From an uncultured Candidatus Bathyarchaeia archaeon (GTDB lineage Archaea > Thermoproteota > Bathyarchaeia > RBG-16-48-13 > JAGMEO01), in contig CAZKBR010000002.1 of assembly GCA_964551465.1 (NCBI GenBank), positions 1 through 48,358 on the forward strand: a DNA stretch of 48,358 nt. The letters are read 5' to 3'. Positions 9,647-46,841 of this stretch are shown here, one piece after another; within the stretch, counting starts at the first letter, position 1; every line of letters starts with the position of its first letter. A program made the position numbers and the translations under genes. A model generated the notes under the pieces. It did no database searches. It was not told where the DNA came from and saw only the letters and a program-made list of their open reading frames with translations.

Positions 9647-9884
9647 TTCATCCGCCCACCACTCTATGTATAGAGAATTAATTGATGCACATGGCTGTTA
9701 AATTCACCACTATACCATCTTCTCCCTTTTTACCTTAATCTTATTTTTAGCGGCATAGTAGTGCATCAATGGCTCGCCTCTCACAGCTTCGATCGATCAA
9801 TTAATATCAATGGACTAATGATTCTTACCTAGTGAAGCTTAATATGTCTGCGATTATGATGCCCGCGCGCGATGAGTTGAAAGA

Positions 9885-10478
9885 ATGATGAAAATAATCA
9901 CGCTACTTGGTTTGCCAGCTTCTGGAAAAAGCTACTATGGCAAAAGATTAGCTGAAGAGCTAGGAGCGAGATTTGTACCAGAGATAGCAACTCAGATCAT
10001 TCATGAAAAAGGATACAAAATCGGGGTTAACGCCCCTCCTGAGTTCGATAGGGATGTTTTTGAAAGAGACTTAGAGATGACGAAGAAGGCTCTTCGACCC
10101 AGACTCAAGACTATTATATGGGAAGGCGGACCAGTCTTGGACTACCTCTTCCTAGAAGGCAGGTCAAAACTAGGTACCGCAAGAAAGGAGAGGAAAATCA
10201 TTCTAAAGCTGTACGACAACAGCATGTTCAAAGAGTTAGGTGAAAAGTCAACTTATATATTTTTTAGTGTAGAACCACAGGTTTCCTTACAGAGACAAGG
10301 GGAAAGAAGCAAGCCAGAGCTTTTGACCCCAGACATTGAGCTCCTAAAATTCGTTCACAACAAGCTGATCAACTTTTACGAGGAAAACAGAGACAAAAGC
10401 ATCCTAGTAAATGTGGACAAAACAAAAGAGGAAGTTTTTGAAGAAGTAAAAAGAGAGGTCTCGAAGATAACAAGATAA
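9885..10478 (+). CDS. P-loop NTPase, small nucleoside/nucleotide-kinase-like ATPase
   Basis: Walker A GLPASGKSYYG at the N-terminus, and a ~197-aa size typical of AAA_28/dNK-like kinases. Specific substrate not inferable. Confidence 0.5.
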   Translation: MMKIITLLGLPASGKSYYGKRLAEELGARFVPEIATQIIHEKGYKIGVNAPPEFDRDVFERDLEMTKKALRPRLKTIIWEGGPVLDYLFLEGRSKLGTARKERKIILKLYDNSMFKELGEKSTYIFFSVEPQVSLQRQGERSKPELLTPDIELLKFVHNKLINFYEENRDKSILVNVDKTKEEVFEEVKREVSKITR

Positions 10479-29456: not shown

Positions 29457-30677
29457 TTACTGTATGCTTGGTGGCGGTCGTGTCCCTAACTCAACTTGAA
29501 CCGTCATCGCCTGTCTGTTTCTCACTATTGTCATGCTGACCGTCTGTCCCGGTGAAGTGTGCTCTTCTAGGTAAGATATGAGATCATCCATGTTGGTGAT
29601 CCTTATTCCATCAATCGCTATTACTATGTCACCGCCGATCGTTATCCAACTTCCCGCGATTAGAGCGTTCCCTGTTCCTCCGCGCAGACCCGCTTTATCG
29701 GCTGGTCCTCCACTTACAACCCCGACGATCAACGTACCGTAGGTGACATCAACGCCCATTCTTGTCGCTATATCGTAGTTCATGTCTATTCCTGTTATGC
29801 CCAGCCATGGATGATGATTGTATGATCCCTCGCTGACTAATGATCTGATTTCTCGAAGAATTGTACTTGAGGGGATCGCGAAGCCCAGCCCCTGAGAATC
29901 GGATACTATGGCTGCGGTTATGCCAACAACTTGACCCAGATAGTTCAAGAGTGGGCCTCCCGAGTTTCCAGGGTTTATCGGAGCGGTTATCTGGATCACG
30001 TTGGCTATCGGGTACCCGCCGGTTGTTTCCTCGGTTATTGTTCTTCCGAGCTGGCTGACTATGCCTGTGGTCATCGATCCTGTTAGCCCATATGGATTGC
30101 CGATTGCTATTACCGGGTCACCTACCCTCAAGGAAGATGAGCTGACAATTTCAAGAGGTTTATACTCGTCCTGTGGAGTGTTTGTTGAAAGCACGGCAAG
30201 GTCAGCATATGGATCTGAACCCAAGACGGTTGCCCTGTATCCATCCCCATTTATGAAGGTGACAGTAATATTGATGGCGTTGTTGACTACATGGAAGTTT
30301 GTGACGATTACTATTTGTCCTGTGCAGTTGTAGATGAAGCCTGATCCCTGGACATATGTGTACGTCGTCCCTTGATAAGTGGACTCTACTACGACCCCAC
30401 GAATTGTTACGACAGACTCTTTGATTTCTTCGTACAACGAGGAGAGGGAGGCGCCATCTCCGAAAACATAAGTGACATTCTGAGCTGACCGAAGATTTGT
30501 AATCTGTTCTTGAAGCGTCGAGATCTGGTCCTGGAGGTCAGTGATCTGTTTTGAGACCATCGAATAGCTCAATAGTCCTCCAGCAACTGCTCCAACTACG
30601 ATTGATACCACTATGAGAACAGCTGAGAAACGGGTAATTCTTTGTTTCCTAGAGCTCTCCAAACAAGCTCGCCCCAT
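29457..30677 (-). CDS. htrA: HtrA/DegP-family serine protease (S1C) with N-terminal TM anchor, coiled coil and C-terminal PDZ
   Basis: Catalytic triad contexts TNFHVV, DLAVL and GNSGGPLLN. PDZ region GLRGG...GDIVIAIDG. Confidence 0.85.
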   Translation of the reverse strand: MGRACLESSRKQRITRFSAVLIVVSIVVGAVAGGLLSYSMVSKQITDLQDQISTLQEQITNLRSAQNVTYVFGDGASLSSLYEEIKESVVTIRGVVVESTYQGTTYTYVQGSGFIYNCTGQIVIVTNFHVVNNAINITVTFINGDGYRATVLGSDPYADLAVLSTNTPQDEYKPLEIVSSSSLRVGDPVIAIGNPYGLTGSMTTGIVSQLGRTITEETTGGYPIANVIQITAPINPGNSGGPLLNYLGQVVGITAAIVSDSQGLGFAIPSSTILREIRSLVSEGSYNHHPWLGITGIDMNYDIATRMGVDVTYGTLIVGVVSGGPADKAGLRGGTGNALIAGSWITIGGDIVIAIDGIRITNMDDLISYLEEHTSPGQTVSMTIVRNRQAMTVQVELGTRPPPSIQ

Positions 30678-30711
30678 AGACTAGGCAGATACTTTTAGAA
30701 AATCACTCGCG

Positions 30712-30767
30712 ATCATATAGGTTTTTGAAACGTTTTCGAGGTTTACGACCGTTTTCAAGTACCTCAT
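30712..30767 (-). pseudogene. Decayed 5' stub of a MacB-type ABC ATPase gene (first ~19 codons)
   Basis: 30712-30771 aligns without gaps to 36504-36563, the 5' end of the ATPase at 35861..36559, with 55/60 identical by hand count. It encodes MRYLKTVVNLENVSKTYM, then diverges and stops. Confidence 0.6.
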
Positions 30768-30837
30768 CCACATACCATCTTTTCTAATCTGATTAAGCAC
30801 GCGCGATTTATTTCTGCTTCTTTGCATGTATAGTTCA

Positions 30838-30904
30838 GAGGAATTATAAAAGAGTATTTCAGAATTAGACTCAATTCCGACTTAAATCAGAATCTACTTG
30901 TTAC
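30838..30904 (-). promoter_or_regulatory. Promoter/operator cassette copy A (TATA plus upstream dyad), upstream of the ATPase stub and htrA
   Basis: Minus-strand reading: TTCTGATTTAAGTCGGA..TTCTGAAAT-ACTC-TTTTATAAT. 56/67 identical, ungapped, to copy B. Confidence 0.55.
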
Positions 30905-31010
30905 AACGCGCGTGAAACATGACAGAACGAAGTTTTAAACTAAACTAGTGCTGTTCAGCGGATTCGCACACGCGATATGTTAAACCCCTCTTTTCTGGTA
31001 TTTACTGCGT

Positions 31011-33575
31011 CTATTCTGTCCAGTCTATCGAGGTTAGATAGCTCATCCATGGAACCCAATTAGATCTGGCTTCGGCTCTCCATCTGCCTGCGACCGGTCC
31101 GACGAGTTCCTGTATTGCCCATTGCCAAGTGTTGTCGGATATACCGCGCATCTTCACCGTGTTCAGCAGCACCGAGGTGACACCCCTATTTGGGGTCGTC
31201 TCGTTCGTGTACAATGTGTTAAAGTTGCACCAGTAGTGGGCTAGCCAGTATGCGGCTGCGAGCGTGTCGAAGCCGCTGATACCGTAGATTAAGAGACCCG
31301 CGTATGGGTCGCTCAGTGTAGGACCATCAAGGGCGGCACTATTGGTTTCAAAGAATACACCGTCGCCTATCTGCTCACCGTCGTATATCGATGTCCAAGA
31401 GGTCAGGTTGAGGTCCTCTGCAATGGTTATCAGTGAGTATCCACCGTGTGATGCGGGGTAGAATGTTCCAGTTGGGATGCTGAAGAACCCAGCTTCAGGC
31501 AACTCCGATGCCGTTGTGGCGGGATCAACCCATATGATCCACATGTGATCGTTGAAGTACTCAGAGGCCAGGTTGACCTTTGGACCGCCGATGATGATCG
31601 TGTGGTTTATGTCCCATGATGCGCCGGTCGGCATCGTGAAGAGGCCCCAGTCGACACCCGACTCACCGTTTGTTCTGTTCTGTATGCGTCGCCAGCCCGA
31701 GAGCTTCCATGACAGAGGTATCGTTCCTAGATTGTCGACGTATTCCTTTCCAGCAACAGTCTTGTAGAAGTTCGGGCTGACACCGTAGAATGGGCCGTAG
31801 GCTTCTCCCATGAAGCCTGTTGTGTCCCACATTGCTTCCCACCATGGGTCTAGTCCTGTCACGCTGATGAAGCTGCCGAATGCTTCACCCACCTCTGTTC
31901 CGCCGACAACATCTATCACAGACGCGGCCTCACTTGCGAAGACCATGCCATTGTGCGCTACGCTCGCGCCGTAGATGAACGTCGTGTTCCTCGGGTCGCA
32001 TGTAATGTAGCGATCTATCCAGACGTTTCCATCGTACGTGCTCAGCTTATTCCAAGAGACGCCGCTGAACGGGTACCAGTTGGATAGGTCGAGTGGTTTG
32101 CCGTTTTTGTCTTTGGTTTCGGTTGACAGCTTGTATGTTGTGTTGAAGTACTCTGAGAGCATGTACTTGAGTTCGCCCGCAGTTATCTGTCCACAGTAGC
32201 CTGCCCTGCTGTCCCAGTCGTAGCTCGACGGGCTTCCAACATATCCAAAGGTGTCGGAGCAGTTGGTGATGCCATAGAGTGTGAGGAACTCGGCCTTCCT
32301 GAAAGCGGTCGAGGAACTTAGCGTGAAGTTCCATTGTCCGAGCAGGAGGTTGGCAGCCGCGTAGTGGTTAGCATCGATACTTCTGTACTCAACGCTAAGC
32401 GGTTGGTAGCCGAAGCGTCTGCCTAAACCTTCGCCAATCACGGGCGCGATGTGCAGGTCGTAGGTGAAGTGGTTCCAGTTGTCGGTGTCCCAGTTGCTGC
32501 AGTTAGGATAGTACGCCACGAATGCAACATGATGCTGTGGAGCAACGGAGTAGCCATTTGGAGGAACCCATATGGCTACGCTTGAGTTCGTCCAGACGAC
32601 GGCTAGGCTGTAGTTCTGAGGCCAGTATTCACAACCAGTCCAGAACATGTGATCTTGCTGTCCCTCTTCGGCGGTTAAGCCTGTGAGGTGGCCCTTCCAA
32701 GAGCCTTTCCTAGAGTTGGCGTAGAAGACGGAGAAGCTTTCAGCTTCTCCTTCTTGGAACTTCTGGTCGATGTCGAAGCTCGTCATCCTGCGGAAGACAA
32801 CATCGAGGGCACCGTACTCGGTCTTCAGGTACTCGATCGTCCAGTAGGAGGCGATTTCCTTCGTGTCCTTGAAGAAGACAAAGGTGCCGGTTATTTCAAA
32901 GAGACGGGACTCAAACCCAAACCTGTCTTCAATTTCCTTGTTGTCTGTTAGAACCTTGACCTGAGCGACGAGCAATCTTGAAGTGTTTGTTATAATGGTC
33001 TCGGACTCAGGTATGACATTAACCCTAGCGCGTCTGTATGGTGAGCTGATGTTGCCGTAGATGGCCATCGACACATGCCAATTTGGGTCGATGGCCCATT
33101 GCAGTGTTCCGTTCTTGAACTTCCAATACAGTTGCCAGCCCTCGATCGGGAAGTAGCGCCAGTCGACGCCTGACTTCGTGGGAGTGGCTATGTGCTCGCA
33201 TGGATAGATTCCGTAGTCCGTGCCGTTTGTGCCCGCGGGCATGTCTATCTGCCAGGCTGAATCGGTCGGATACGTCAAGCCGACACCGTACGATGATCCT
33301 GTGCCGAACGGGTCCTGATCTGTGACCATCTCACCGTAGGCCGTGAAGCCCACGTTGATTGAGCGCCTCTGCCACTTCGTGTAGTTGTACTCTGGGAAGA
33401 GCTCATCGTGCAGCATACCATATGCCACTATCTGTCGTTCGCCCGTATGCCAAGAATAGTAATCCAACGCGGCTACAGGAAAGGATAGTAGCATAGTTGC
33501 AATCATCAGAGTCGTTAGCAGTAGACCTAATACGATTTTCTTGTGTGATCTCCATTTCTTCAATCGCGTGCGCAC
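31011..33575 (-). CDS. 854-aa secreted/anchored orphan glycoprotein (unknown family)
   Basis: N-terminal basic stretch plus a hydrophobic signal/anchor (KKIVLGLLLTTLMIATMLLSFPVAA). Very Trp/Tyr-rich, with 16 N-x-S/T sequons by my count. Last gene of ABC operon 1. An IIIGGPKVN segment faintly recalls archaeal S-layer proteins. Confidence 0.6.
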   Translation of the reverse strand: MRTRLKKWRSHKKIVLGLLLTTLMIATMLLSFPVAALDYYSWHTGERQIVAYGMLHDELFPEYNYTKWQRRSINVGFTAYGEMVTDQDPFGTGSSYGVGLTYPTDSAWQIDMPAGTNGTDYGIYPCEHIATPTKSGVDWRYFPIEGWQLYWKFKNGTLQWAIDPNWHVSMAIYGNISSPYRRARVNVIPESETIITNTSRLLVAQVKVLTDNKEIEDRFGFESRLFEITGTFVFFKDTKEIASYWTIEYLKTEYGALDVVFRRMTSFDIDQKFQEGEAESFSVFYANSRKGSWKGHLTGLTAEEGQQDHMFWTGCEYWPQNYSLAVVWTNSSVAIWVPPNGYSVAPQHHVAFVAYYPNCSNWDTDNWNHFTYDLHIAPVIGEGLGRRFGYQPLSVEYRSIDANHYAAANLLLGQWNFTLSSSTAFRKAEFLTLYGITNCSDTFGYVGSPSSYDWDSRAGYCGQITAGELKYMLSEYFNTTYKLSTETKDKNGKPLDLSNWYPFSGVSWNKLSTYDGNVWIDRYITCDPRNTTFIYGASVAHNGMVFASEAASVIDVVGGTEVGEAFGSFISVTGLDPWWEAMWDTTGFMGEAYGPFYGVSPNFYKTVAGKEYVDNLGTIPLSWKLSGWRRIQNRTNGESGVDWGLFTMPTGASWDINHTIIIGGPKVNLASEYFNDHMWIIWVDPATTASELPEAGFFSIPTGTFYPASHGGYSLITIAEDLNLTSWTSIYDGEQIGDGVFFETNSAALDGPTLSDPYAGLLIYGISGFDTLAAAYWLAHYWCNFNTLYTNETTPNRGVTSVLLNTVKMRGISDNTWQWAIQELVGPVAGRWRAEARSNWVPWMSYLTSIDWTE

Positions 33576-33598
33576 CCAATTTCCTAATTCCCTGAATT

Positions 33599-34891
33599 CT
33601 ATTCGTACCTAAGTGCCGTGGCTGGGTCGAGCTTGGCGGCTTTTCTGGCTGGGAAGAATCCTGCTATCACGCTGACTATGATTCCAAAGCTGATCGCGAT
33701 AATTATGAGCTGGGGAGTGAATACTGGTTGGAGGCTACCAAGCCGAAAAGCTCCACCTCCCATTCCCATCGGCGCGCCTCCTGTTATGCCAGCGCCTTGA
33801 CCCTGGCTTTGAAGGCCGGTGAGTAGCCAACTCGCGGTATAAGCCATTACTGCTCCGATACCGCAGCCTACACCGCCTCCGAGGACTCCTATTATCGCTG
33901 CTTCGGTGAGGAACAGCATCATTATTGTCCTGTTCTCTGAGCCCACGGCTTTTAATAGGCCTATGATTCTTGTCCTCTCTATGACCGAGATATACATGAT
34001 GTTGGCTATGCCAACGCCCGCGACTATGAGCGATATAGCCGCTATTCCGCCTAGGAATAACTGAATTTGACTTATCATGGATCCAATCGTCGTTGTAAGC
34101 TGCTCTGAAGACATTATACGAACGTTAGTTCCATACATCTCCTCAAGAGATGTTGTAATCGAGCTCACGTCGTCGATGGTCTTGGCCACGACAATGATGC
34201 CATTGTATTCACCGTAACTTCTTTTCAGCAACATGCTTGCCGCTGGTAGTGACAGAAAAACGCTATCGTCTAATTGAACGAATAGGGAAGTCCCATACTC
34301 GGATAGTACTCCTTTAACCACGTATGTATGCGTTGAGGTGACTGAACCGCTTGCTGTGGCTACCTGTGTCTGGACAGCAAGCAGTTGACTAATGGTTGCG
34401 AAAGTTGTGCCCGGAGAGTCTGGCGGATAAGCGACATTGTAGCCAACAACGATCCCCGAGTAGTCAATTGTTGGTAATAGCGTTCCTTGTGCCACACTCA
34501 TATCTGAAAAAATCTCAGGGAGAAATTCGTTATCGATGCCCATAAGTGTTACGTCATATGACTTGCCGCCGGCTTTCAACGTGACTCTGCTACTGACGTA
34601 AGGGATGACTTCACTAACGCCGTCAATTAGTGCGATCGATCTAACATCAGATGAGGTTAGCTTAACACCACGTCCTCCTGGAAGAAACTCCCCTACTGAA
34701 GAAAGAGTGAGGGTGTTTGCTCCGGTCTTGCCAGCAAGCCCAGTGACGATGACTCTCAGCCCGTCTGTCAGAGATATCAAAACGACTATGGTGGCTATAC
34801 CTATGACTATGCCTAGTATGGTCAATGCAGCCCTGAGCTTACGCGACTTGAGGGCTTCAAACGCCATGCTGAAGATGTCTAATGCCTTCAA
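33599..34891 (-). CDS. MacB/FtsX-type ABC transporter permease
   Basis: FEALKSRKLRAALTILGIVIGIA N-terminal TM, a large extracytoplasmic domain, and a C-terminal FtsX 3-TM bundle ending PARKAAKLDPATALRYE. Confidence 0.85.
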   Translation of the reverse strand: MKALDIFSMAFEALKSRKLRAALTILGIVIGIATIVVLISLTDGLRVIVTGLAGKTGANTLTLSSVGEFLPGGRGVKLTSSDVRSIALIDGVSEVIPYVSSRVTLKAGGKSYDVTLMGIDNEFLPEIFSDMSVAQGTLLPTIDYSGIVVGYNVAYPPDSPGTTFATISQLLAVQTQVATASGSVTSTHTYVVKGVLSEYGTSLFVQLDDSVFLSLPAASMLLKRSYGEYNGIIVVAKTIDDVSSITTSLEEMYGTNVRIMSSEQLTTTIGSMISQIQLFLGGIAAISLIVAGVGIANIMYISVIERTRIIGLLKAVGSENRTIMMLFLTEAAIIGVLGGGVGCGIGAVMAYTASWLLTGLQSQGQGAGITGGAPMGMGGGAFRLGSLQPVFTPQLIIIAISFGIIVSVIAGFFPARKAAKLDPATALRYE

Positions 34892-34892
34892 G

Positions 34893-35864
34893 TTAAGACC
34901 CTTTTTTGGAGATTTCGGGAACCTTCAGCAAACGTCTTCTGTATAGAATAATGGTCAATGCGACTCCGGCTACTAAGCCGATGAGCCCGGGCACCAGCAT
35001 GTCCACTATGGAGGGACCAGCTGTAAGTCGACGCTCAGGCACAGCCGTTTTCTCCGCTTCCTTTACGACTATCACATTCAACTCTACGACCTTAGAGCCC
35101 CAAGTGTTGGTATCATCTTTATAGTTGATGATGAATTTTAGTGGATACGTTCCCGCGTTAGCCTTTGTGACGCGACATGTGACGCTGAATGCCACGGAAG
35201 TTCCTGACGAAACATCGCCTATGAACAAGGAACCTGCCTCCGTGGCGATGAATGGAGGCTCTGATACTATTGAGATGCTGAGTGCCTTTGCCGTGCCTGA
35301 TCCCTCGTTGGTTATCGTGCCTGAAACCGCTAAACTTTGATTTGCAACGGCTGGTGACGGAGAAAATGTTACGCCTGACAGCCATGGGTCTACGAAGCCG
35401 TGGACTGGTAGACTTATCGTTCTGGTCTCGCTCTTGCTGGAGCCTCCAGCGTTATAGCTCAGATCTAGTGAGGCGGAATAGGTTGAACCCGAACTCCCTT
35501 CAGGTGCAAATATGGTGGTTTCTATTGTTACGTTTTTGCGCGGTTCAATCACTTGGAAGAACCATTTGTCATCCTTTCCCATCAATGCAAGGGGGGATGG
35601 GATCGACAGAGTGACCGTCACTACAGTTGCGGCACAGGGACCCCTGTTGACTATTGCTATGGATAGGTTGTTGGCACGGCCCGCTAAGATGTACTGACCC
35701 GTTACCTTCACATCGAGTACGGTAGTAAACTCCTCCGTGTAATCAGCATGTGTTGTCGAAACTAAACCTTGCAATGGCAACAAGATCAGTATAATCAAGA
35801 ATACTGTCATGCACGCTCTTCCAGCAGTTTGGTTTCCATACCTGGAATCTTTTCCTGACATCAA
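34893..35864 (-). CDS. Surface protein with two CARDB/COG1361-like beta-sandwich repeats and a C-terminal TM anchor
   Basis: Signal-like N-terminus, a repeated pattern (...SIAIVNRGPCAATVVTVTL... / ...VSGTITNEGSGTAKALSISIV...), and a C-terminal LVPGLIGLVAGVALTIILYRRR anchor. Start overlaps the ATPase stop by 4 nt. Confidence 0.55.
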   Translation of the reverse strand: MMSGKDSRYGNQTAGRACMTVFLIILILLPLQGLVSTTHADYTEEFTTVLDVKVTGQYILAGRANNLSIAIVNRGPCAATVVTVTLSIPSPLALMGKDDKWFFQVIEPRKNVTIETTIFAPEGSSGSTYSASLDLSYNAGGSSKSETRTISLPVHGFVDPWLSGVTFSPSPAVANQSLAVSGTITNEGSGTAKALSISIVSEPPFIATEAGSLFIGDVSSGTSVAFSVTCRVTKANAGTYPLKFIINYKDDTNTWGSKVVELNVIVVKEAEKTAVPERRLTAGPSIVDMLVPGLIGLVAGVALTIILYRRRLLKVPEISKKGS

Positions 35865-36559
35865 GTTTTCACTTCCTCCTTGACGATTAGACCATCCTTA
35901 AGATAAATTGTTCGTTTCGCCTTAGATGCGATTTTAATATCGTGAGTAACAACAACTATCGTCACTTTCTTCTTGTTGTTTAGCTTATGTAGTAGGGAAA
36001 TTATCTCCATTCCAGTCTTTGAGTCAAGGTTTCCCGTTGGTTCATCTGCCACTATGACCTCTGGATTATTGACCAGTGCTCTAGCGACAGCGACCCTTTG
36101 CTGTTCGCCTCCACTGAGTTGCAGTGGTCTATGGTTGATGCGTTCAGTTAGACCGACGAGGTTGAGCAGGTCTTTTGCTCTCTCTTCCTGCTCTTCTCTC
36201 GTAACTTCGGCTATGGTTAATGGCACTTCCACGTTTTTCAGCGCAGTCAACCAAGGGACCAGCTGAAAAGTCTGAAACATGAAACCGAATTTCTTCAGTC
36301 GGAGATTCGCCAGTTCTTTGTCATCTAACTCTGAAGCATCCAAATCATCAACAAAGACCTTGCCTTCGGTCGGTCGATCTAGGAGAGCAATAATATTGAG
36401 GAGCGTTGTCTTCCCGCTTCCTGAAACACCTAAAAATACCATGAAGTCTTCACTATTGATCCCTAAGTTTATTCCTTTAAGTGCTGGAACGGGCACATCT
36501 CCCATCATATAGGTTTTTGAAACGTTTTCAAGTTTTATGACCGTTTTCAAGTGCTTCAT
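35861..36559 (-). CDS. MacB/LolD-type ABC transporter ATP-binding protein (system 1)
   Basis: Walker [11 protein letters not shown], signature LSGGEQQRVAVARAL, Walker [14 protein letters not shown]-loop VVVTHD. Start set at ATG 36559 (MKHLKTVIKLENVSKTY). Confidence 0.9.
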   Translation of the reverse strand: MKHLKTVIKLENVSKTYMMGDVPVPALKGINLGINSEDFMVFLGVSGSGKTTLLNIIALLDRPTEGKVFVDDLDASELDDKELANLRLKKFGFMFQTFQLVPWLTALKNVEVPLTIAEVTREEQEERAKDLLNLVGLTERINHRPLQLSGGEQQRVAVARALVNNPEVIVADEPTGNLDSKTGMEIISLLHKLNNKKKVTIVVVTHDIKIASKAKRTIYLKDGLIVKEEVKT

Positions 36560-36585
36560 CCACCATATGTGTTGGATGTGATATA

Positions 36586-36909
36586 TCAAATGTCATGTAT
36601 AAACTTAGCTCCATGGGCTAAATTTCTTATCTGATTGAGCGTCGGAACAGAAGAGTCTCGGGTGCGATCTTCGACAGGCTTCATCTTCTTTTTCGCAGGT
36701 AGCGAAACGACACCTACAACCGTCATTATAATTCCCATCATAATTCCTAGACTCTGTAACGCCATGATCGATAGAATTATAATCGGGATATGTGGTTCAT
36801 TGCTTGGAACACCACTAGGAAGATGCCTTGGACCAAGGATTCTAAGGATCAAAGGAAAACAAGCTAAAATCAAAAGAATCAAACCTAGTACTACTAACTT
36901 CTTTCGCAT
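36586..36909 (-). CDS. Small 2-TM membrane protein, first gene of ABC operon 1
   Basis: 107 aa with two hydrophobic helices and a charged C-terminal tail. No family recognised. Confidence 0.45.
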   Translation of the reverse strand: MRKKLVVLGLILLILACFPLILRILGPRHLPSGVPSNEPHIPIIILSIMALQSLGIMMGIIMTVVGVVSLPAKKKMKPVEDRTRDSSVPTLNQIRNLAHGAKFIHDI

Positions 36910-36965
36910 ATCATATCACTTGCAGTCGCGCGCGATGTCGTATCTCCTTTTCCTCAGAATTGCCC

Positions 36966-37032
36966 GAGGAATTATAAAAGTATATTTCAGAATTGGACTC
37001 AACTCTGACCCAAATCAGAACGTATTTATTAC
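36966..37032 (-). promoter_or_regulatory. Promoter/operator cassette copy B (divergent region between ABC operon 1 and the wHTH gene)
   Basis: Minus-strand reading: TTCTGATTTGGGTCAGA (dyad TCTGA-N6-TCAGA)..TTCTGAAAT-ATAC-TTTTATAAT. The TATA lies ~60 nt upstream of ATG 36909. Confidence 0.55.
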
Positions 37033-37086
37033 GAAAGTTCAAGAAGATTTATAGTTCAAAAAGCTAAGTCTCAGGAAGTTCCATGG

Positions 37087-37380
37087 ATGTCAGCCTACGG
37101 ACGCCATCTGAAGTATGTGCTTGGATGGCTGATCGCAGGCACGCGAGGCGGTGTCACACGTGCCCGAATAATCAGAGCCCTGAAAGAGAGGCCACTAAAC
37201 GCAAATCAATTGGCTGAGCTACTCAAAATGGACTATAGAACGATGAGGCACCATCTTGAAGTGCTTCAGAAGAATGGGATAATCATCTCCGCTGGGGACA
37301 AGTACGGCGTAACATATTTTTTGTCTCCTGAAATGGAAGAAAACTACGCTTTTTTTGAAGAGATTCTGAAGAGAATTTGA
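37087..37380 (+). CDS. ArsR-like winged helix-turn-helix transcriptional regulator
   Basis: GGVTRARIIRALKERPLNANQLAELLKMDYRTMRHHLEVLQKNGII is a classic ArsR/SmtB-type HTH (..L...p....eLa..l.......HL..L...Gl). Confidence 0.75.
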   Translation: MSAYGRHLKYVLGWLIAGTRGGVTRARIIRALKERPLNANQLAELLKMDYRTMRHHLEVLQKNGIIISAGDKYGVTYFLSPEMEENYAFFEEILKRI

Positions 37381-37405
37381 AAAAAATTAAAAAGGGTGGA
37401 AAAGA

Positions 37406-37843
37406 ATGAAACGTAACGTGACTAATAGTACAAAACGCGGCCTAATACTGGCAGCTGTCGTGGTAATAGCCATAGTCCTAGCATTCTGGGCTGTTACCTT
37501 TGTGCCTATGCCTTTCCCGTTCAATCCCAGAATAGGCCGCAATATTCGCGGTGATATCGAGCTATTCTATATGGTCAAGACAGCAATCTCGACGATAAAT
37601 GCAGTACTTCTGGTTTTCTTGTTAGTCACGTATGTCGAACTCTATCAGAAGATCAAATCAGAATTCACAACAGCATTGATAATATTTTCCACAGTTTTAC
37701 TTCTTCATGCCTTGACTTCTAACCCCTTGCTACCTCCAATCTTTGGATTCCAAGCATTTGGTCTTGGACCGTTTGCCATGCTACCAGACCTCTTTACATG
37801 TGCCGCAATAATAATACTGGTGTACCTTGCCTTCAAATATTGA
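37406..37843 (+). CDS. 4-TM membrane protein co-transcribed with the wHTH regulator
   Basis: 145 aa with four hydrophobic helices. 25-nt gap after the regulator gene, with a GGGTGG SD-like motif before the ATG. Confidence 0.5.
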   Translation: MKRNVTNSTKRGLILAAVVVIAIVLAFWAVTFVPMPFPFNPRIGRNIRGDIELFYMVKTAISTINAVLLVFLLVTYVELYQKIKSEFTTALIIFSTVLLLHALTSNPLLPPIFGFQAFGLGPFAMLPDLFTCAAIIILVYLAFKY

Positions 37844-38080
37844 ATCGCGGGCAGTACCTGTGGTCAAGAATGAAACGACCCTGACGACAAAAAAAACATG
37901 ATTTCAGTAACCACTACTAAAGGGACGTTTTGTATAGCAGTCTAAATCTTTATGTAACGCCTTTTGGTGTTGCTTCAGAAACTATGGGGTCTATGATGGT
38001 CTTCATGTCCTCGATCAAATGCTGAGAAATGGCATTCTTGTCAAAACGGTCAACTGAATATTATATTTAGCCCTCTTCAG

Positions 38081-38800
38081 TTAAGATTGATGGGACTTAA
38101 GTTTTCCGTCATCGAGATAGAGCATTTTCCCTGTTTGTGAGGCTATGTCGCTGTCGTGGGTTACCATTATGACTGTGGTTCCTTGGTCAACGACTAAACC
38201 GCCATACTTAGGTGCTGTAGAAAATGTACATCTGGCTAATATTGTCATGATCTCGTACTTGGTTTTTTTATCTAGGTTTCCTGTGGGTTCATCTGCTAGA
38301 ACCATAGTGGGATTATTTGCTAGTGCGCGTGCAATGGCCACTCTTTGCTGCTCTCCTGCGCTTAACCGATTTGGTCTATGTCTTTCTCGTCCTGACAAAC
38401 CGACTCTGCTTAACAATTCGTGAGCACTTTTTCTTCTTTCATCCCTCGATTTTTTCGTGCCTTCCATGGGAAGTTCCACGTTTTCGATGGCGCTTAGGTA
38501 TGGTAATAGGTTGAAAGTTTGGAAGATAAACCCAATCTTGTTTCTTCTTATTTTACATAGCTCTTTCTCAGGTAATTCTGTGACATCCATTCTGTCAAAG
38601 ATTACTCGTCCACTTGTCGGTTTGTCAAGACATCCCAGGATACTCAGCAACGTCGTCTTGCCAGAGCCCGAAGGCCCAAGAATCGAAATAAACTCTCCTT
38701 TATTGACTTGAAGATTTACTTCAGAGAGTGCTTGAACTCTATCTTTACCCATTGTATAAGTTTTGGACAAGCCCTCGGTCTTTACAAGAATTTCACTCAT
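38081..38800 (-). CDS. MacB/LolD-type ABC transporter ATP-binding protein (system 2)
   Basis: [43 protein letters not shown]. Carries an 11-aa insertion ([11 protein letters not shown]) before the H-loop relative to system 1. Confidence 0.9.
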
Positions 38801-40103
38801 ACCTCATCGCCTCTGCAGGTCTGGTTCTGGACGCTCTCCAAGCAGGGTATAAGCTACCTAAAGCTCCCAGCAACACTACTGCCCCAAATGCTAGTAATAT
38901 TATTTGTAGATTTGGTGTAACTGTAACAGATTGCGAAAATGCCCCAGGCCCCATACCAAATAGATTGATATGAGGAAGCAAAAGCGATGCTAGGAAGGGT
39001 GCTCCCATGCTTCCTATCACAACGCCAACTACTCCTGCCATTAAACTCAGCAATACTCCTTCAAGCAGAAACTGAACCATAACATTCCCGTTGCTTAAGC
39101 CTATCGCTTTGAGTATGCCAATTTCTTTTGTCCTCTCACGCACAGTATACGTCATTGTGAACAAAACTATTAAGCCAGTAGCAACAATTGCTATGATCAA
39201 CTCTTGAAAGGCGGTGGTTTGCGTCTGGCTGAATGTTGATTCAGCATTCTGTAACATGAATTGATACGATTGCTTCATTCTCTCAAGTTGGCTTAGACGA
39301 TCTGTAGGTGTTGTAATATAGATTAGCGGATATATTGAAGCTATTATACTGGCTATTCTGTCCACATCGGACTCGTCTTCTGCATACACATCTAATCTAC
39401 TTATTTTCCCCTCAAGGTCGGTTATCGTTTGCGCATCATAGATACTCATGTACAATCTAGTATCTGCTGATTCGTAGACTCCTATTACTGTAAAAACGCT
39501 TCCTTTGATATTGACTTCATCGCCTGCTTCTGCTCCGAAATAATTCGTGTTGTTTGAACTCAAGAGAACAACCTCTCTGTCCCCCTCACGTAGGTTTCTT
39601 CCCTCAGCTATGTTCGTTGGCAGTATAGAATAGTTATCAATGAGGGAGGAATTCAGAGGAACACCAACGATCGTGTAATCTGTAACAAAGATAGTGAATT
39701 CCATTCCCATCCGCGTCTCAGTTCGTGAAGTCCCCACGGCGTATTCCAAAAATGGCACAACGTCCTTGACGCCTTGTATGGAAAGAACATCTGAGATCGC
39801 ACTTTCATTCAAGAAATATTCAGTCCTATCGGGCCTTTCAGGCCTAAATTGACCAAATCCGGATGTAGTGCGACATTCTATCAATGTTAATGTTCTGTTG
39901 ATTTCTTCTTCCATATTACCGATTGTTTTATCATAAGATTCCATTAGGCTCGTTGTAGCTGCTTGGTTTGCCATGATGCCCGAGGGAACAGAAATCATGA
40001 TTGCCATAGAGAAGCCTAAGGCAATGACTATCAGCAAAACCCTAATTTTCCTTCTCGAAACACTTCTAAATGCTCTTGTTAAGACACTTGACTGAAACGC
40101 CAT
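38793..40103 (-). CDS. MacB/FtsX-type ABC transporter permease (system 2)
   Basis: LTRAFRSVSRRKIRVLLIVIALGFSMAI N-terminal TM, an extracytoplasmic domain, and an FtsX C-terminus ending [17 protein letters not shown]. Start moved to ATG 40103 because cassette copy C (TATA) lies inside the longer ORF. Confidence 0.8.
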   Translation of the reverse strand: MAFQSSVLTRAFRSVSRRKIRVLLIVIALGFSMAIMISVPSGIMANQAATTSLMESYDKTIGNMEEEINRTLTLIECRTTSGFGQFRPERPDRTEYFLNESAISDVLSIQGVKDVVPFLEYAVGTSRTETRMGMEFTIFVTDYTIVGVPLNSSLIDNYSILPTNIAEGRNLREGDREVVLLSSNNTNYFGAEAGDEVNIKGSVFTVIGVYESADTRLYMSIYDAQTITDLEGKISRLDVYAEDESDVDRIASIIASIYPLIYITTPTDRLSQLERMKQSYQFMLQNAESTFSQTQTTAFQELIIAIVATGLIVLFTMTYTVRERTKEIGILKAIGLSNGNVMVQFLLEGVLLSLMAGVVGVVIGSMGAPFLASLLLPHINLFGMGPGAFSQSVTVTPNLQIILLAFGAVVLLGALGSLYPAWRASRTRPAEAMRYE

Positions 40104-40142
40104 CTTACGATCACTTTTTAACGGTGTAGAAGGGTAGGTGCG

Positions 40143-40200
40143 AACTATAAAAGAGTTTTTCAAAGTTAATTCTAATTCTTATCCTAATCTGACCCATTTA
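40143..40200 (-). promoter_or_regulatory. Promoter/operator cassette copy C (diverged), upstream of ABC system 2
   Basis: Minus-strand reading: TGGGTCAGA....CTTTGAAAA-ACTC-TTTTATAG. The TATA-proximal ~26 nt match copy A closely. The TATA lies ~45 nt upstream of ATG 40103. Confidence 0.45.
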
Positions 40201-40360: not shown

Positions 40361-41509
40361 CTACCATACGAGGGTATATTTAGCCCCGTCAGAGTCGAAA
40401 AATACTATTTTTGTCTGGGCTTGTTGGGATTTCAGGATGACGTATCCGTCTGCTCCCTGAGTGAACACTATCCCGTCTTGGGTCATCTCTAAGCCTGTGC
40501 CGTTGACCTGTACGATGCTGATGTTGAAGGGCGGTGCCAAGACCTCGGAGCCGAGAAGAATCTTGTTTATCGTTACATTTGCGACTTGTCCAGGAGGCCC
40601 TGAAGGCTGGGGGTAAGTGAAGTGTATGCGGTAGATCCATTGCTTGTCGGTGGCGTTGTAATCGAGGTATGCAGGAAAACATGCAGGAGGGGGGCCCGGA
40701 GCGTAAGGGATTTGGAGCTTACTACCCCCGCCAGTTGCTGAAATGCCGATGTTGAAGGGGGGACCCGGGTTAGCTTGGACTGGGATTATCAGCATAAGTA
40801 TGAAGGGCGTGAGTGTTAGGAGGGCGATGAAGATTTTCAGGTTTCGTCTCTTCGTCCATTTGAGACCTTTAACCTTTCTCAGAAGACTTGTGGAGGCGGA
40901 GAACAGCGTTGAAGAGAGTGTTAGTCCCTGCGCTATGAAGGGAAGAACGAAGAATAGTACTTCTTCAGTGTCGATGATCGGGAGATAATTCTTGAAGAGC
41001 AGTGCAGAGTCGGTCATGATGAAGAGAGGCTTAGCCATACCGAGGAAGGAAAGTGCACTGACGACTAGTAGGGCGCACTCAAGGATCAGCCTGTGCCTCT
41101 TGCTTAGGAGAAGATAGAGGGCGACGAGTAGAAAGAACCAGATGGGAAGTAGGTACATGAATGCTGCTGGAGGAAAGATGAAAAGGGGTAGGACAGCGAC
41201 GATGGTGCGGGGAGCTAGGATGACCAACATCAACAAGCCGAGGAGGTGTCTGACTCTAAGGAGGCCAGAAGTGAGCCTGTCAGCCTCCTTCCCCAGACCT
41301 ACACCGCAGTAGGGACAGAGCTTAATGTCATCGGGAAAAGTGGAGAGGTCGGAGCCACACTTAGAACATTTACGTTTTGTAACGGGTTGCAGAGGTATTT
41401 CAGCCCGTTGTTTGAGAGAAGCCATGATAAGGAATCCTATGCCGATGAGTATTATGCCCAGCGAGACGAGCATCAGGATTGAGCCTATTCCAACGATGAA
41501 TACAGCCAC
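40361..41509 (-). CDS. Polytopic membrane protein with cytoplasmic zinc ribbon and C-terminal extracellular beta-rich domain
   Basis: CSKCGSDL..x..CPYCG ribbon after the first TM, several further TM helices, a Pro-rich linker, then a sequon-bearing domain (NAT, NVT, NIS, NGT). GTG start, with a TTATATAA box ~55 nt upstream. Confidence 0.5.
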   Translation of the reverse strand: MAVFIVGIGSILMLVSLGIILIGIGFLIMASLKQRAEIPLQPVTKRKCSKCGSDLSTFPDDIKLCPYCGVGLGKEADRLTSGLLRVRHLLGLLMLVILAPRTIVAVLPLFIFPPAAFMYLLPIWFFLLVALYLLLSKRHRLILECALLVVSALSFLGMAKPLFIMTDSALLFKNYLPIIDTEEVLFFVLPFIAQGLTLSSTLFSASTSLLRKVKGLKWTKRRNLKIFIALLTLTPFILMLIIPVQANPGPPFNIGISATGGGSKLQIPYAPGPPPACFPAYLDYNATDKQWIYRIHFTYPQPSGPPGQVANVTINKILLGSEVLAPPFNISIVQVNGTGLEMTQDGIVFTQGADGYVILKSQQAQTKIVFFDSDGAKYTLVW

Positions 41510-45629: not shown

Positions 45630-46043
45630 TTAGCCGAATAGTTGTTTGATGAGTTTGCGGCAGCTTTCTAGGGCTTTCTTGACCTTGGGAAGGATTTCCT
45701 TGACAGTTGTTTCATATTTTTCTGGAGGGTGTTCGTATGGGTATCTGAATTTTGGTCTTCCTCTAGCTAGGTTATCTGTGACTTCAGCTATCGCTTGGAT
45801 TTGTTTTAGGAACCATGGAGGATGTTTCTCCTCTATTTCTTTCAGAAAGCGGCCTACCGCATGGATTTTTGGATAGTCTATTCCATAGGATATTAGAACG
45901 GCCTTCACCGCGTACTCTGTACATTCCTGAAGATACTTCATGGAGCCAACGTAGTCTTTGTCCTCTGAGCATTTGACGGCGTTCCTGAATTCGCGTTCTG
46001 CGATCTTTATTGCTTTTTCAGCTCTGTCCTTGTTTATAGCCAT
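45630..46043 (-). CDS. HEPN domain protein (toxin partner of the MNT-HEPN module)
   Basis: 137 aa, all-helical. AEREFRNAVKCSEDKDYVGSMKYLQECTEYAVKAVL... plus the C-terminal motif FRYPYEH (R-x4-H). Starts 3 nt after the MNT stop. Confidence 0.75.
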   Translation of the reverse strand: MAINKDRAEKAIKIAEREFRNAVKCSEDKDYVGSMKYLQECTEYAVKAVLISYGIDYPKIHAVGRFLKEIEEKHPPWFLKQIQAIAEVTDNLARGRPKFRYPYEHPPEKYETTVKEILPKVKKALESCRKLIKQLFG

Positions 46044-46046
46044 CTG

Positions 46047-46841
46047 TTATCCCAAGTCTATTTCTATTGGTTCGCCGGGGGCGATGTCGGGCTTCAGGAA
46101 CCACGCGTATGCTCCATCGGAGTATTCGATTCGAGTGGTTCCCAGATCCTTGAGCGATCCTTGAAGCTTCTCCATCAATCTCTGAAAGAATGCCTCTCTG
46201 TCGTAGAGGACAACCCTGTGAGAGAGCATATCGAGGTACACGGGCTGAAATTTCTTGGCGTAGCTTTTCTGCAGAGACGCCGTGGTAACCTCAGGGTATC
46301 CGTAGGTTCCAAGCATTTTTAGCCAATAGTCGCAGGCTCTGTACTCCCATGTTGATTGGAAGACTTTGAAGACGCTTCCTTCGCGTTTCCATATGTTTCT
46401 CGAATCGTCTTTGAGAACGTAGAGCAGGTCTACGTCACTTCCACCCAGTTGGAAGGAGCCTTTGACCGCCGAACCGTAAAGAACGATGGAGATTAGTTCA
46501 TCACCAAATTCGTTATGAAACAGTTCTGTGAGACGCCTCAACGAGATTCTCATCCATCCATACCTAATCTTAACAAATTCTTCGTGGTTAACCCACTTCT
46601 GCTCAGATTTTCCTTCAAACTCTGCTATTTTGAGAGTCGTATCAAAGCCTTCGCTTGTAATTTTGTAGTGATCTCCAGCTTTCTGAATTAGGCCCTCAGC
46701 CACCAGATCCTTTAACCTCCTAGTTAGCGTCCTCGTGTTAACGACAAACTCATTTAGCTCTTTAAACCTAGCCTCCCCTGTACAGAGTCGAAGCAGAACG
46801 TCAAGGGCTCCATCCCTCGCCAACGCACCGAGCTTAATCAT
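46047..46841 (-). CDS. Minimal nucleotidyltransferase (MNT) fused to an N-terminal winged-helix domain
   Basis: wHTH: ARFKELNEFVVNTRTLTRRLKDLVAEGLI. NTase motif: LYGSAVKGSFQLGGSDVDLLYV (GS...D.D). Confidence 0.75.
   Translation of the reverse strand: MIKLGALARDGALDVLLRLCTGEARFKELNEFVVNTRTLTRRLKDLVAEGLIQKAGDHYKITSEGFDTTLKIAEFEGKSEQKWVNHEEFVKIRYGWMRISLRRLTELFHNEFGDELISIVLYGSAVKGSFQLGGSDVDLLYVLKDDSRNIWKREGSVFKVFQSTWEYRACDYWLKMLGTYGYPEVTTASLQKSYAKKFQPVYLDMLSHRVVLYDREAFFQRLMEKLQGSLKDLGTTRIEYSDGAYAWFLKPDIAPGEPIEIDLG

Follow-up and report, generated by a model that had tools for sequence, protein, structure and literature searches.

In bacteria, proteases of the HtrA/DegP type are induced by regulons such as CssRS-HtrA/HtrB, CpxAR and sigmaE-DegP, and peptide detoxification is served by systems such as BceRS-BceAB and MacAB. 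To our knowledge, almost nothing has been reported on how archaea sense and repair envelope damage, and nothing on gene regulation in the Bathyarchaeia, which are among the most abundant lineages of sediments and have almost no cultured members. A mechanistic parallel for the locus described here comes from Bacillus subtilis, where SdpR leaves the DNA when SdpI, a polytopic membrane protein encoded in the same operon, sequesters SdpR in response to an external toxin (PMC2910880). The locus lies on a contig of an uncultured Candidatus Bathyarchaeia archaeon (CAZKBR010000002.1, positions 1 to 48,358; this whole stretch of 48,358 nucleotides is referred to as the window), in which three copies (A, B and C) of a 45-bp cis element precede htrA and two operons for ATP-binding cassette (ABC) exporters of the MacB type, next to the genes for a small winged helix-turn-helix (wHTH) protein of the ArsR type and a transmembrane (TM) protein of the family DUF8036. 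The preferred reading, to which we assign a probability of about 0.6, is that A, B and C are promoter-operator units of a single regulon that extends across the Bathyarchaeia, in which the wHTH protein would bind the repeats of the element and gate the access of TATA-binding protein (TBP) and transcription factor B (TFB) to the promoter, with the DUF8036 protein as membrane sensor.

By analogy, SdpR-SdpI appears to be the closest mechanistic precedent for the wHTH-DUF8036 pair. As in that system (PMC2910880), the gene for a small ArsR-fold wHTH protein lies immediately upstream of, and co-directional with, the gene for a multi-pass membrane protein, the wHTH protein lacks metal-sensing residues, and the context is one of envelope defence or maintenance. 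Unlike SdpR, which represses its own operon only, the putative regulator would face conserved sites on promoters in its vicinity and on some farther away (HtrA, ABC exporters); the setting is archaeal, with promoters composed of a TFB-recognition element (BRE) and a TATA box, and sequestration would be purely an extrapolation from the bacterial pair. Membership in the SdpR/SdpI families is not established, because the SdpR cut-off is missed and the DUF8036 protein, with its four TM segments, has no detectable similarity to SdpI. With the bacterial envelope regulons the locus shares a PDZ-containing protease of the HtrA family and FtsX-fold ABC exporters with an extracytoplasmic domain, joined by a shared cis element; it differs in being archaeal and in relying on a one-component wHTH protein with a membrane partner rather than on a two-component system or an extracytoplasmic function sigma factor, and no histidine kinase or response regulator was present among the genes of the locus. 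The exporters conform to the MacB type (type VII): both permeases (430–456 aa) match MacB_PCD and one FtsX domain and are closest to LolCE/MacB, being 4-TM proteins rather than 10-TM permeases of the BceB kind found in Bce-type modules, and both ATPases have their best match in MacB/LolD (1e-64 to 1e-71), under the equivalog cut-offs.

Within the window, a repeat search paired the segments 30838-30904 and 36966-37032, which contain copies A and B, at 84% identity over 67 nt without gaps (repeat D1; 56/67), the count that the initial annotation had reached by hand, and recovered a 27-nt repeat with three members that brings in copy C (D3; 30841-30867, 36969-36995 and 40142-40168; 85–89% identity). 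All three copies lie on the minus strand, each upstream of minus-strand genes, in agreement with what had been reported, and both A and B carry TTCTGAAAT, a 4-nt spacer, TTTTATAAT and, 38 nt after the TATA box, a CGCGCG block. Using 80 loci from 80 species genomes, chosen solely for carrying the wHTH gene and taken with 10-kb flanks (1.29 Mb in total), it was possible to examine the element independently of the window. When 59 of these species were used to build a 45-column profile, leaving the window out, the three copies scored 30–40 bits (Table 1) and nothing else in the 48 kb was matched, the fourth-best position reaching -4.5 bits; in 4 Mb of sequence simulated with a Markov model, scores stayed under 8 bits throughout. 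Since a profile that excludes the window recovers all three copies, they are bona fide members of a class-wide element. Each has the features of an archaeal core promoter, a TATA-like octamer and an A-rich BRE at a suitable distance before a gene start, with start codons following the TATA box after 41 nt in C, after 62 nt in B and, in A, after 17 nt (a stub open reading frame [ORF]) and 166 nt (htrA).

Copy C had been described as retaining the TATA-proximal part and a single half-site. The former holds (27 nt), while the latter gives way to a full-length copy, as C aligns without gaps over all 45 nt (GATTAGGataa GAATTAGaatt AACTTTGaaaa actc TTTTATAG). An alignment of GGGTCAGA in C with its counterpart in B requires an 11-nt gap, the GGGTCA of C lying one 11-nt repeat further upstream than that of B; the gap-free alignment fits the profile and leaves GGGTCA as part of a possible fourth repeat. 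Copy C is identical to A and B at just 29–30 of 45 positions, which falls under the family mean of 32.5/45, indicating an old independent member rather than a recent copy.

In nearly all of the 80 loci, the element is present upstream of the wHTH gene and read away from it, in the form aGATTAGGnatAGAATTGGGTntAATTCTGAAAAAtcnTTTAATAA. The consensus from 255 non-redundant instances, from which the information content was also calculated, is TtaGATTAGGgATAGATTTGGGTnTAATTCTGAAAAACcCTTTAATAA. The conserved unit comprises three direct repeats phased at 11 bp, a spacer of 3–4 nt and a TATA octamer, for a total of 45 bp. The distal (RATTnGG), middle (RATTTGGGT) and proximal (AATTCTGAAAAA) repeats, R1–R3, generalise to A-T-T-n-(G/T)-G-(G/A) at intervals of 11 nt, and the correlation of the frequency matrix with itself peaks at a direct shift of 11 nt (0.40). 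The octamer, TTTAATAA or TTTTATAA, is near-consensus and nearly invariant, and the BRE region is A-rich, its position being overlapped by R3. The repeats are confined to the sequence upstream of the TATA box (roughly -35 to -70) and cover neither this box nor the transcription start site. Information content is about zero upstream of R1 and from 3 nt past the TATA box. Each repeat has a self-complementary AATT/ATT core, some species possess a fourth in-phase repeat (e.g., loci L072 and L076), and in copy A the conserved GG of R1 has been lost. Operators of the OmpR/PhoB type offer a parallel, the pho box consisting of direct repeats with an 11-bp periodicity: both have about 7 conserved and 4 variable bp per repeat, are phased by one helical turn and lie immediately upstream of the core promoter. 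The fold family is different, there is no receiver domain, and no homology is implied.

Two further features proposed from the A/B comparison did not extend to the family. A dyad, TCTGA-N6-TCAGA, had been put forward as the operator. It is present in B as written, the only perfect instance in the window, and is imperfect in A and in the two closest relatives (TCTGT...TCAGA in L207, TCTGA...TCGGA in L209); its upstream arm carries no information across the 255 instances, and the dyad is rejected as the operator. The CGCGCG block of the leader stands at the same distance from the TATA box in A and B, yet the 31 nt in between share only about 30% identity, and neither C nor the family profile contains the block; the profile has lost its information by that point. 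It is not a shared feature of the element.

The distribution of copies was scored at a threshold of at least 12 bits over the 1.29 Mb around the wHTH genes. At least one copy occurred in 78 of the 80 loci and 138 of 143 copies lay within 2.5 kb of the wHTH gene. Of all 143 copies, 123 were upstream of the wHTH gene and pointed away, 16 were just after the wHTH-DUF8036 pair and also pointed away, and 4 were arranged otherwise. A same-strand ORF of at least 70 aa began within 350 nt downstream of 135 of 146 copies. The motif GAAAAA-N3-TTTAATAA was found 78 times inside elements and 0 times elsewhere, with matches to the TATA box alone at chance frequency; these sub-motif controls, in which the BRE-TATA half is confined to elements, rule out a generic Bathyarchaeial promoter. 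The initial annotation had also named a generic dispersed repeat, for example a miniature inverted-repeat transposable element (MITE), as a finding that would overturn its proposal. Several copies per locus are what a mobile repeat might leave behind, but terminal inverted repeats are absent, information is zero outside the 45-nt core, orientation to the downstream gene is fixed, and copies are confined to the neighbourhood of the wHTH gene with orthologous positions kept across species, which together make a MITE-like origin scarcely credible. Confinement to the wHTH, fixed orientation and the sub-motif controls thus set the element apart from both generic promoters and mobile repeats.

The association was also approached in reverse, by searching public metagenome contigs for a DNA pattern derived solely from the element; this search yielded 120 loci. 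The wHTH gene was found within 2.5 kb upstream of 31 of the 49 copies with enough flank, and within 6 kb of 17 of 20. Where no wHTH gene lay nearby, the copy stood in front of a membrane-anchored protein with coiled coils, a ~190-aa secreted protein, FtsX-ATPase-HtrA as an operon, or only HtrA. Judged by these gene neighbourhoods, most of the putative regulon is local, and its few distant members are without exception envelope proteins. Linkage in both directions upholds the proposal that the ArsR-type wHTH protein is the obvious candidate regulator, and bears on the alternative that the element is read by another transcription factor, or by a specialised TFB/TBP paralogue with an extended BRE, with wHTH-DUF8036 merely a member or neighbour of the regulon. 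Consistent with such a factor, the most invariant block, CTGAAAAA-N3-TTTAATAA, sits at the BRE/TATA itself and some copies lie more than 5–10 kb from any wHTH gene. However, a TFB, whose contacts upstream of the TATA box span just ~6–7 bp, cannot account for 33–44 bp of phased repeats, the wHTH gene is the only DNA-binding gene consistently adjacent to the element, its recognition helix, like the element core, is invariant, and only 2 of the 143 copies point into the wHTH gene itself. We consider this alternative improbable.

The genes downstream of the element are consistent among the loci. In the canonical layout, wHTH-DUF8036 is divergent from an element that precedes a secreted protein of ~180 aa, followed by a second element in front of FtsX(MacB_PCD)-ATPase-HtrA. 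Chains of genes driven by the element included FtsX in 52 loci, the ATPase in 53, HtrA in 39 and the ~180-aa secreted protein (cluster c3) in 31, and HtrA is directly divergent from the wHTH gene in several species. Further targets include CARDB/ABC-2 transporter sets, a PAP2 protein, coiled-coil membrane proteins and a repeat protein with a weak LTXXQ signal, such that all identifiable targets in this inventory are envelope proteins. The FtsX2-ATPase2 pair under copy C is orthologous to the canonical FtsX-ATPase(-HtrA) operon of the Bathyarchaeia (cluster 0, 65 FtsX2-like vs 3 FtsX1-like proteins; cluster 1, 62 ATPase2-like vs 6 ATPase1-like), and the htrA product of the window belongs to the Do/HtrA family of NCBIfam (Pfam Trypsin_2, 3.9e-32; PDZ_2, 2e-11). 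Because the same genes are element-driven in other loci, the linkage of htrA to MacB-type exporters is ancestral in the class rather than specific to the window, and the claim that the three sites form one conserved cis element joining these genes stands on evidence from outside the window.

Several smaller observations concern the target genes. A secreted protein of ~160 aa with internal repeats (cluster c9; L016, L020, L078, L099 and L209) is element-driven and has a weak Pfam match to the LTXXQ motif of the CpxP/Spy family (E = 0.006, under the cut-off); if a true CpxP/Spy relative, it would be a member of the regulon resembling a periplasmic chaperone. Directly after copy B, an ORF of 107 aa with two TM segments is not called by public gene callers on any identical contig. 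It is conserved at the protein level in L207, where the ATG is replaced by ACG and just a 57-aa internal ORF is called, and it is probably a real small membrane protein with an uncertain start. The 854-aa protein of the same operon matches no Pfam family and is present in L207 (844 aa, L207 1659-4193) and absent from L209, suggesting a recent addition to the operon.

The wHTH protein was assigned to the ArsR/SmtB fold from several directions. Pfam matches were above the cut-offs for HTH_20 (2.2e-9; 37.6 bits, cut-off 27) and HTH_5 (3.5e-9; 36.8 bits, cut-off 22), and the AlphaFold2 model (pLDDT 88) follows the order alpha1-alpha2-alpha3-alphaR-beta1-beta2-alpha5, with HlyU first among the top Foldseek matches in the PDB, which also include CzrA, SmtB, CadC and SqrR (TM-scores of 0.67–0.72 for these five) as well as BigR (~0.7). 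A sequence search of solved structures returned a weak match to PH1932 (E = 0.003) and was less informative than the fold search. There were 1738 homologues, the best 120 at 74–88% identity, with an invariant recognition helix, DYRT(I/M)RHHL, and identical proteins occurred on 18 metagenome contigs. Unlike the ArsR/SmtB repressors whose fold it shares, the protein has no Cys and its C-terminal helix, EMEENYAFFEEILKRI, is without His, so that both an alpha3N Cys and the alpha5 His/Asp metal site are missing; the protein is therefore no sensor of metals or persulfides. A homologue of the DUF8036 protein (a Pfam label taken from precomputed annotation) directly follows the wHTH gene in 80 of 81 loci, starting 308–506 nt past the wHTH start, the sole exception being a contig that ends there.

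The wHTH gene is transcribed divergently from copy B, its start lying 54 nt from the 67-nt repeat, which takes in the probable TATA box of the wHTH gene at its distal end; the homologous positions in A have decayed (GTAACAAGT). Most of the 80 loci keep GTAATAAAT(G/A)TG (reverse complement) equally far from the start of the wHTH gene. On its BRE side, this TATA box is separated from R1 of copy B by 7 nt, compared to ~35–45 nt in most species, making autoregulation of the wHTH gene plausible in this genome. In L209, the gene directly after DUF8036 (6804-7727, plus strand) encodes a membrane protease of the Peptidase_M48/M56 type (HtpX/BlaR1-like), a further membrane quality-control gene in the neighbourhood, with no element copy of at least 6 bits before it.

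On the preferred reading, that the wHTH protein is the regulator of the element, it would occupy the phased repeats in a cooperative manner along a single helical face, with two or more dimers probably involved, and thereby control the access of TBP/TFB to the abutting BRE/TATA. The DUF8036 protein would relay a signal from the envelope or membrane by sequestering the wHTH protein at the membrane, as SdpI does with SdpR, and the output would comprise HtrA, FtsX+ATPase exporters of the MacB type and small proteins that are secreted or located at the surface. Repression is mildly favoured over activation, because the BRE/TATA is near-consensus and invariant, R3 overlaps the BRE, and most ArsR/SmtB proteins are repressors, as is SdpR (PMC2910880). 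The opposite sign, in which the wHTH protein sits on the repeats just upstream of the BRE, recruits or stabilises TFB/TBP, and has its availability controlled by the DUF8036 protein, would suit the position of the repeats clear of the TATA box and start site, and has precedents in activators of archaea whose sites lie immediately before the BRE and in HlyU, the ArsR-fold relative matched best by Foldseek, which acts positively. A nearly invariant TATA box and A-rich BRE of near-consensus sequence are, however, more typical of strong promoters held by a repressor, and with the overlap of R3 and the habits of the family, an activator seems less likely than a repressor.

A number of points weigh against the wHTH protein as a repressor acting through this element. 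ArsR/SmtB dimers classically bind inverted repeats (12-2-12), whereas three or four direct 11-bp repeats are conserved here, and archaeal sites that lie upstream of or overlap the BRE can be activator sites too. The dyad component of the repeats is only weak, with best operator axes at 0.38–0.39, although the ATT/AATT core in each repeat could reconcile a symmetric dimer with direct repeats. The wHTH protein scores under the curated NCBIfam cut-offs, both for ArsR metalloregulators (35.8 vs 55 bits) and for the SdpR autorepressor, its second-best family (NF033789; 35.5 vs 100 bits), and a Pfam scan of the DUF8036 protein gave no SdpI family match, just DUF7649 at E = 0.046. In the reverse scan, the wHTH gene was missing within 2.5 kb for roughly one in three copies whose upstream flank reached that length or more, such that the regulator would have to act on them in trans, as expected of a regulon, which nonetheless weakens the argument from linkage.

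Copy A has a separate history. A second repeat between the A and B regions (D2; 30712-30771 vs 36504-36563) is 92% identical over 60 nt (blastn E = 2e-19) and spans the codons for the N-terminus of ATPase1; compared with D1, the offset of D2 is reduced by 336 nt, indicating that the body of the small ORF was deleted in the duplicate. The duplicate therefore consists of the promoter, ~20 ATPase codons and, from the 107-aa ORF, just the start and the tail (GCTTAATCAGATTAGAAA vs GCTCAATCAGATAAGAAA), and the stub ORF, in which this start and tail are joined to the ATPase1 codons, is probably a leader or the remnant of an upstream ORF. A MAFFT alignment of the two regions misplaced the second homology block, and blastn with local alignment was used instead. 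The two closest relatives place the event: L207 (wHTH 85% identical to that of the window) has a B-type element followed by small ORF-ATPase-CARDB-FtsX-gp844-HtrA, L209 (wHTH 88% identical) has a B-type element followed by ATPase-CARDB-FtsX-HtrA, and neither has an element in the spacer before HtrA (gp844-HtrA, 115 nt; FtsX-HtrA, 81 nt), which makes copy A an innovation of the window lineage. The core of A is identical at 41 of 45 positions to the B copy of the sister species and at 38 of 45 to B of the window; the orthologous B copy of L207 scores 42.7 bits.

Copy A is thus a recent partial duplicate of the 5' end of operon B that gave htrA an internal promoter. An ancestral single operon (ATPase-CARDB-FtsX-gp854-HtrA under B) gained this promoter when the promoter of B, the leader and the first ATPase codons were duplicated before htrA, while copy C, on the canonical FtsX-ATPase pair, is older and arose independently. 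The initial annotation had taken A/B conservation well beyond the BRE/TATA as evidence of an operator in itself, an argument that falls away, since likeness past the core promoter in a duplicate reflects shared descent. The duplication could be pressed further, with A and B as nothing but its trace, C a chance likeness among AT-rich promoters and no operator shared; A is truly a partial duplicate, and its upstream flank matches that of B at 13 of 25 positions against a family mean of 6.9. But the recovery of all three copies by a profile that excludes the window, the presence of the element before orthologous genes in ~80 species and in the metagenome loci, and a copy C that is no closer to A and B than unrelated family members are render this very improbable.

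Table 1. Features of the window discussed in the text. Sequences of element parts are given in the direction of the element; bit scores are from the 45-column profile.
Feature	Coordinates	Strand	Sequence	Description
Element copy B, 45-nt core	36972..37016	-		Promoter of small ORF-ATPase1-CARDB-like-FtsX1-854-aa operon; 40.0 bits
Copy B, R1	37016-37006	-	GATTTGGGTCA	
Copy B, R2	37005-36995	-	GAGTTGAGTCC	
Copy B, R3	36994-36984	-	AATTCTGAAAT	
Copy B, spacer	36983-36980	-		
Copy B, TATA box	36979-36972	-	TTTTATAA	
Element copy A, 45-nt core	30844..30888	-		Lineage-specific promoter before htrA; 36.1 bits
Copy A, R1	30888-30878	-	GATTTAAGTCG	
Copy A, R2	30877-30867	-	GAATTGAGTCT	
Copy A, R3	30866-30856	-	AATTCTGAAAT	
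Copy A, spacer	30855-30852	-		
Copy A, TATA box	30851-30844	-	TTTTATAA	
Element copy C, 45-nt core	40145..40189	-		Promoter of FtsX2-ATPase2; 30.1 bits
Copy C, possible fourth repeat	40200-40190	-	TAAATGGGTCA	
Copy C, R1	40189-40179	-	GATTAGGATAA	
Copy C, R2	40178-40168	-	GAATTAGAATT	
Copy C, R3	40167-40157	-	AACTTTGAAAA	
Copy C, spacer	40156-40153	-		
Copy C, TATA box	40152-40145	-	TTTTATAG	
wHTH gene	37087..37380	+		97 aa; ArsR/SmtB fold; candidate regulator
wHTH gene, probable TATA box	37024..37032	+	ATTTATTAC	~57 nt before ATG
DUF8036 gene	37406..37843	+		145 aa, four TM; 25 nt downstream of wHTH, co-directional; candidate membrane sensor/partner
Operon under B	31011..36909	-		Five genes below
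Small membrane ORF	36586-36909	-		107 aa
ATPase1	35861-36589	-		MacB/LolD-type
CARDB-like protein	34893-35864	-		323 aa
FtsX1	33599-34891	-		FtsX/MacB_PCD permease
854-aa protein	31011-33575	-		Secreted
Operon under C	38081..40103	-		Two genes below
FtsX2	38793-40103	-		FtsX/MacB_PCD permease 2; start per public gene callers
ATPase2	38081-38800	-		
Chimeric stub ORF	30681..30827	-	MQRSRNKSRVLNQIRKDGMWMRYLKTVVNLENVSKTYMIASDFLKVSA, then stop	48 codons; ends 4 nt before htrA ATG
ATPase1 N-terminal remnant	30712..30771	-		Homologous to 36504-36563; duplicated along with copy A
htrA	29457..30677	-		TM/coiled-coil N-terminus, trypsin-like protease domain, PDZ domain

Within the library searched, no publication was found that describes this regulon, DUF8036 or an envelope regulon of the HtrA/ABC kind in archaea. 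The system is familiar in kind, both as a one-component wHTH protein with a local regulon and in the pairing of HtrA with FtsX-type exporters as the output of an envelope-stress response. The novelty lies in the regulator family and its membrane partner, in the fusion of a direct-repeat operator with a core promoter of the archaeal kind, and in the phylogenetic setting. More tentatively, and with doubt outweighing confidence, wHTH-DUF8036 and the 45-bp triple-repeat operator may constitute the first defined archaeal envelope-stress response, one-component, gated by membrane sequestration and Bathyarchaeia-wide, in which HtrA, exporters of the MacB type and small secreted proteins would be switched on by a four-TM sensor that releases or captures a repressor with the ArsR fold, and in which promoter duplication, as for copy A, would wire in new genes. 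The analysis provides a candidate operator, described by a position-specific profile, a 97-aa candidate regulator whose purification should be easy, a candidate membrane sensor and a coherent set of targets; the profile can be used to annotate the regulon in hundreds of metagenome-assembled genomes, and all of these parts are open to study without cultivating the organism. The window itself is a clean example of regulon rewiring, in which the promoter-operator of an operon was duplicated to become the internal promoter of htrA.

Conserved non-coding sequence follows the wHTH-adjacent copy in some species. In L015, L023, L024, L027 and L077, a segment of 70–90 nt that is not an ORF lies 20–110 nt downstream (e.g., L024 ~9800-9885, minus strand), in which a conserved stem, GGTTGGTGGAGG...CCTCCCCAACC, closes a CU-rich loop. 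The predicted fold of this segment has -17.2 kcal/mol and z = -3.0 in L024, and z = -0.5 in L023; it has no Rfam match and may be a small RNA or a leader. A different conserved sequence that is not an ORF (GGAGGTTGAGAACAAGTCnGCAAnAC...) follows the wHTH-adjacent promoter in L036, L053, L056, L076 and L079; it has no stable fold (z = +1.6) and may encode a very small protein. Rfam gave no match in the window. An inverted repeat in the window (I5; 31044-31072 and 37061-37089, sharing GTTCCATGGATG) is a chance match, as it falls in the conserved C-terminus of the 854-aa protein (SNWVPWMSYL, kept in L207).

Immediately upstream of copy C, a multi-TM protein of 382 aa (40361-41509, minus strand) has a weak zinc-ribbon signal, belongs to no known family and has no element copy of its own. 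Elsewhere in the window (~45630-46841, minus strand) and in L001 (18544-19755), a HEPN-domain protein (137 aa) adjoins a 264-aa protein with a faint HVO_A0261_N wHTH signal in the precomputed annotation; the two look like a toxin-antitoxin or defence-type pair unrelated to the element.

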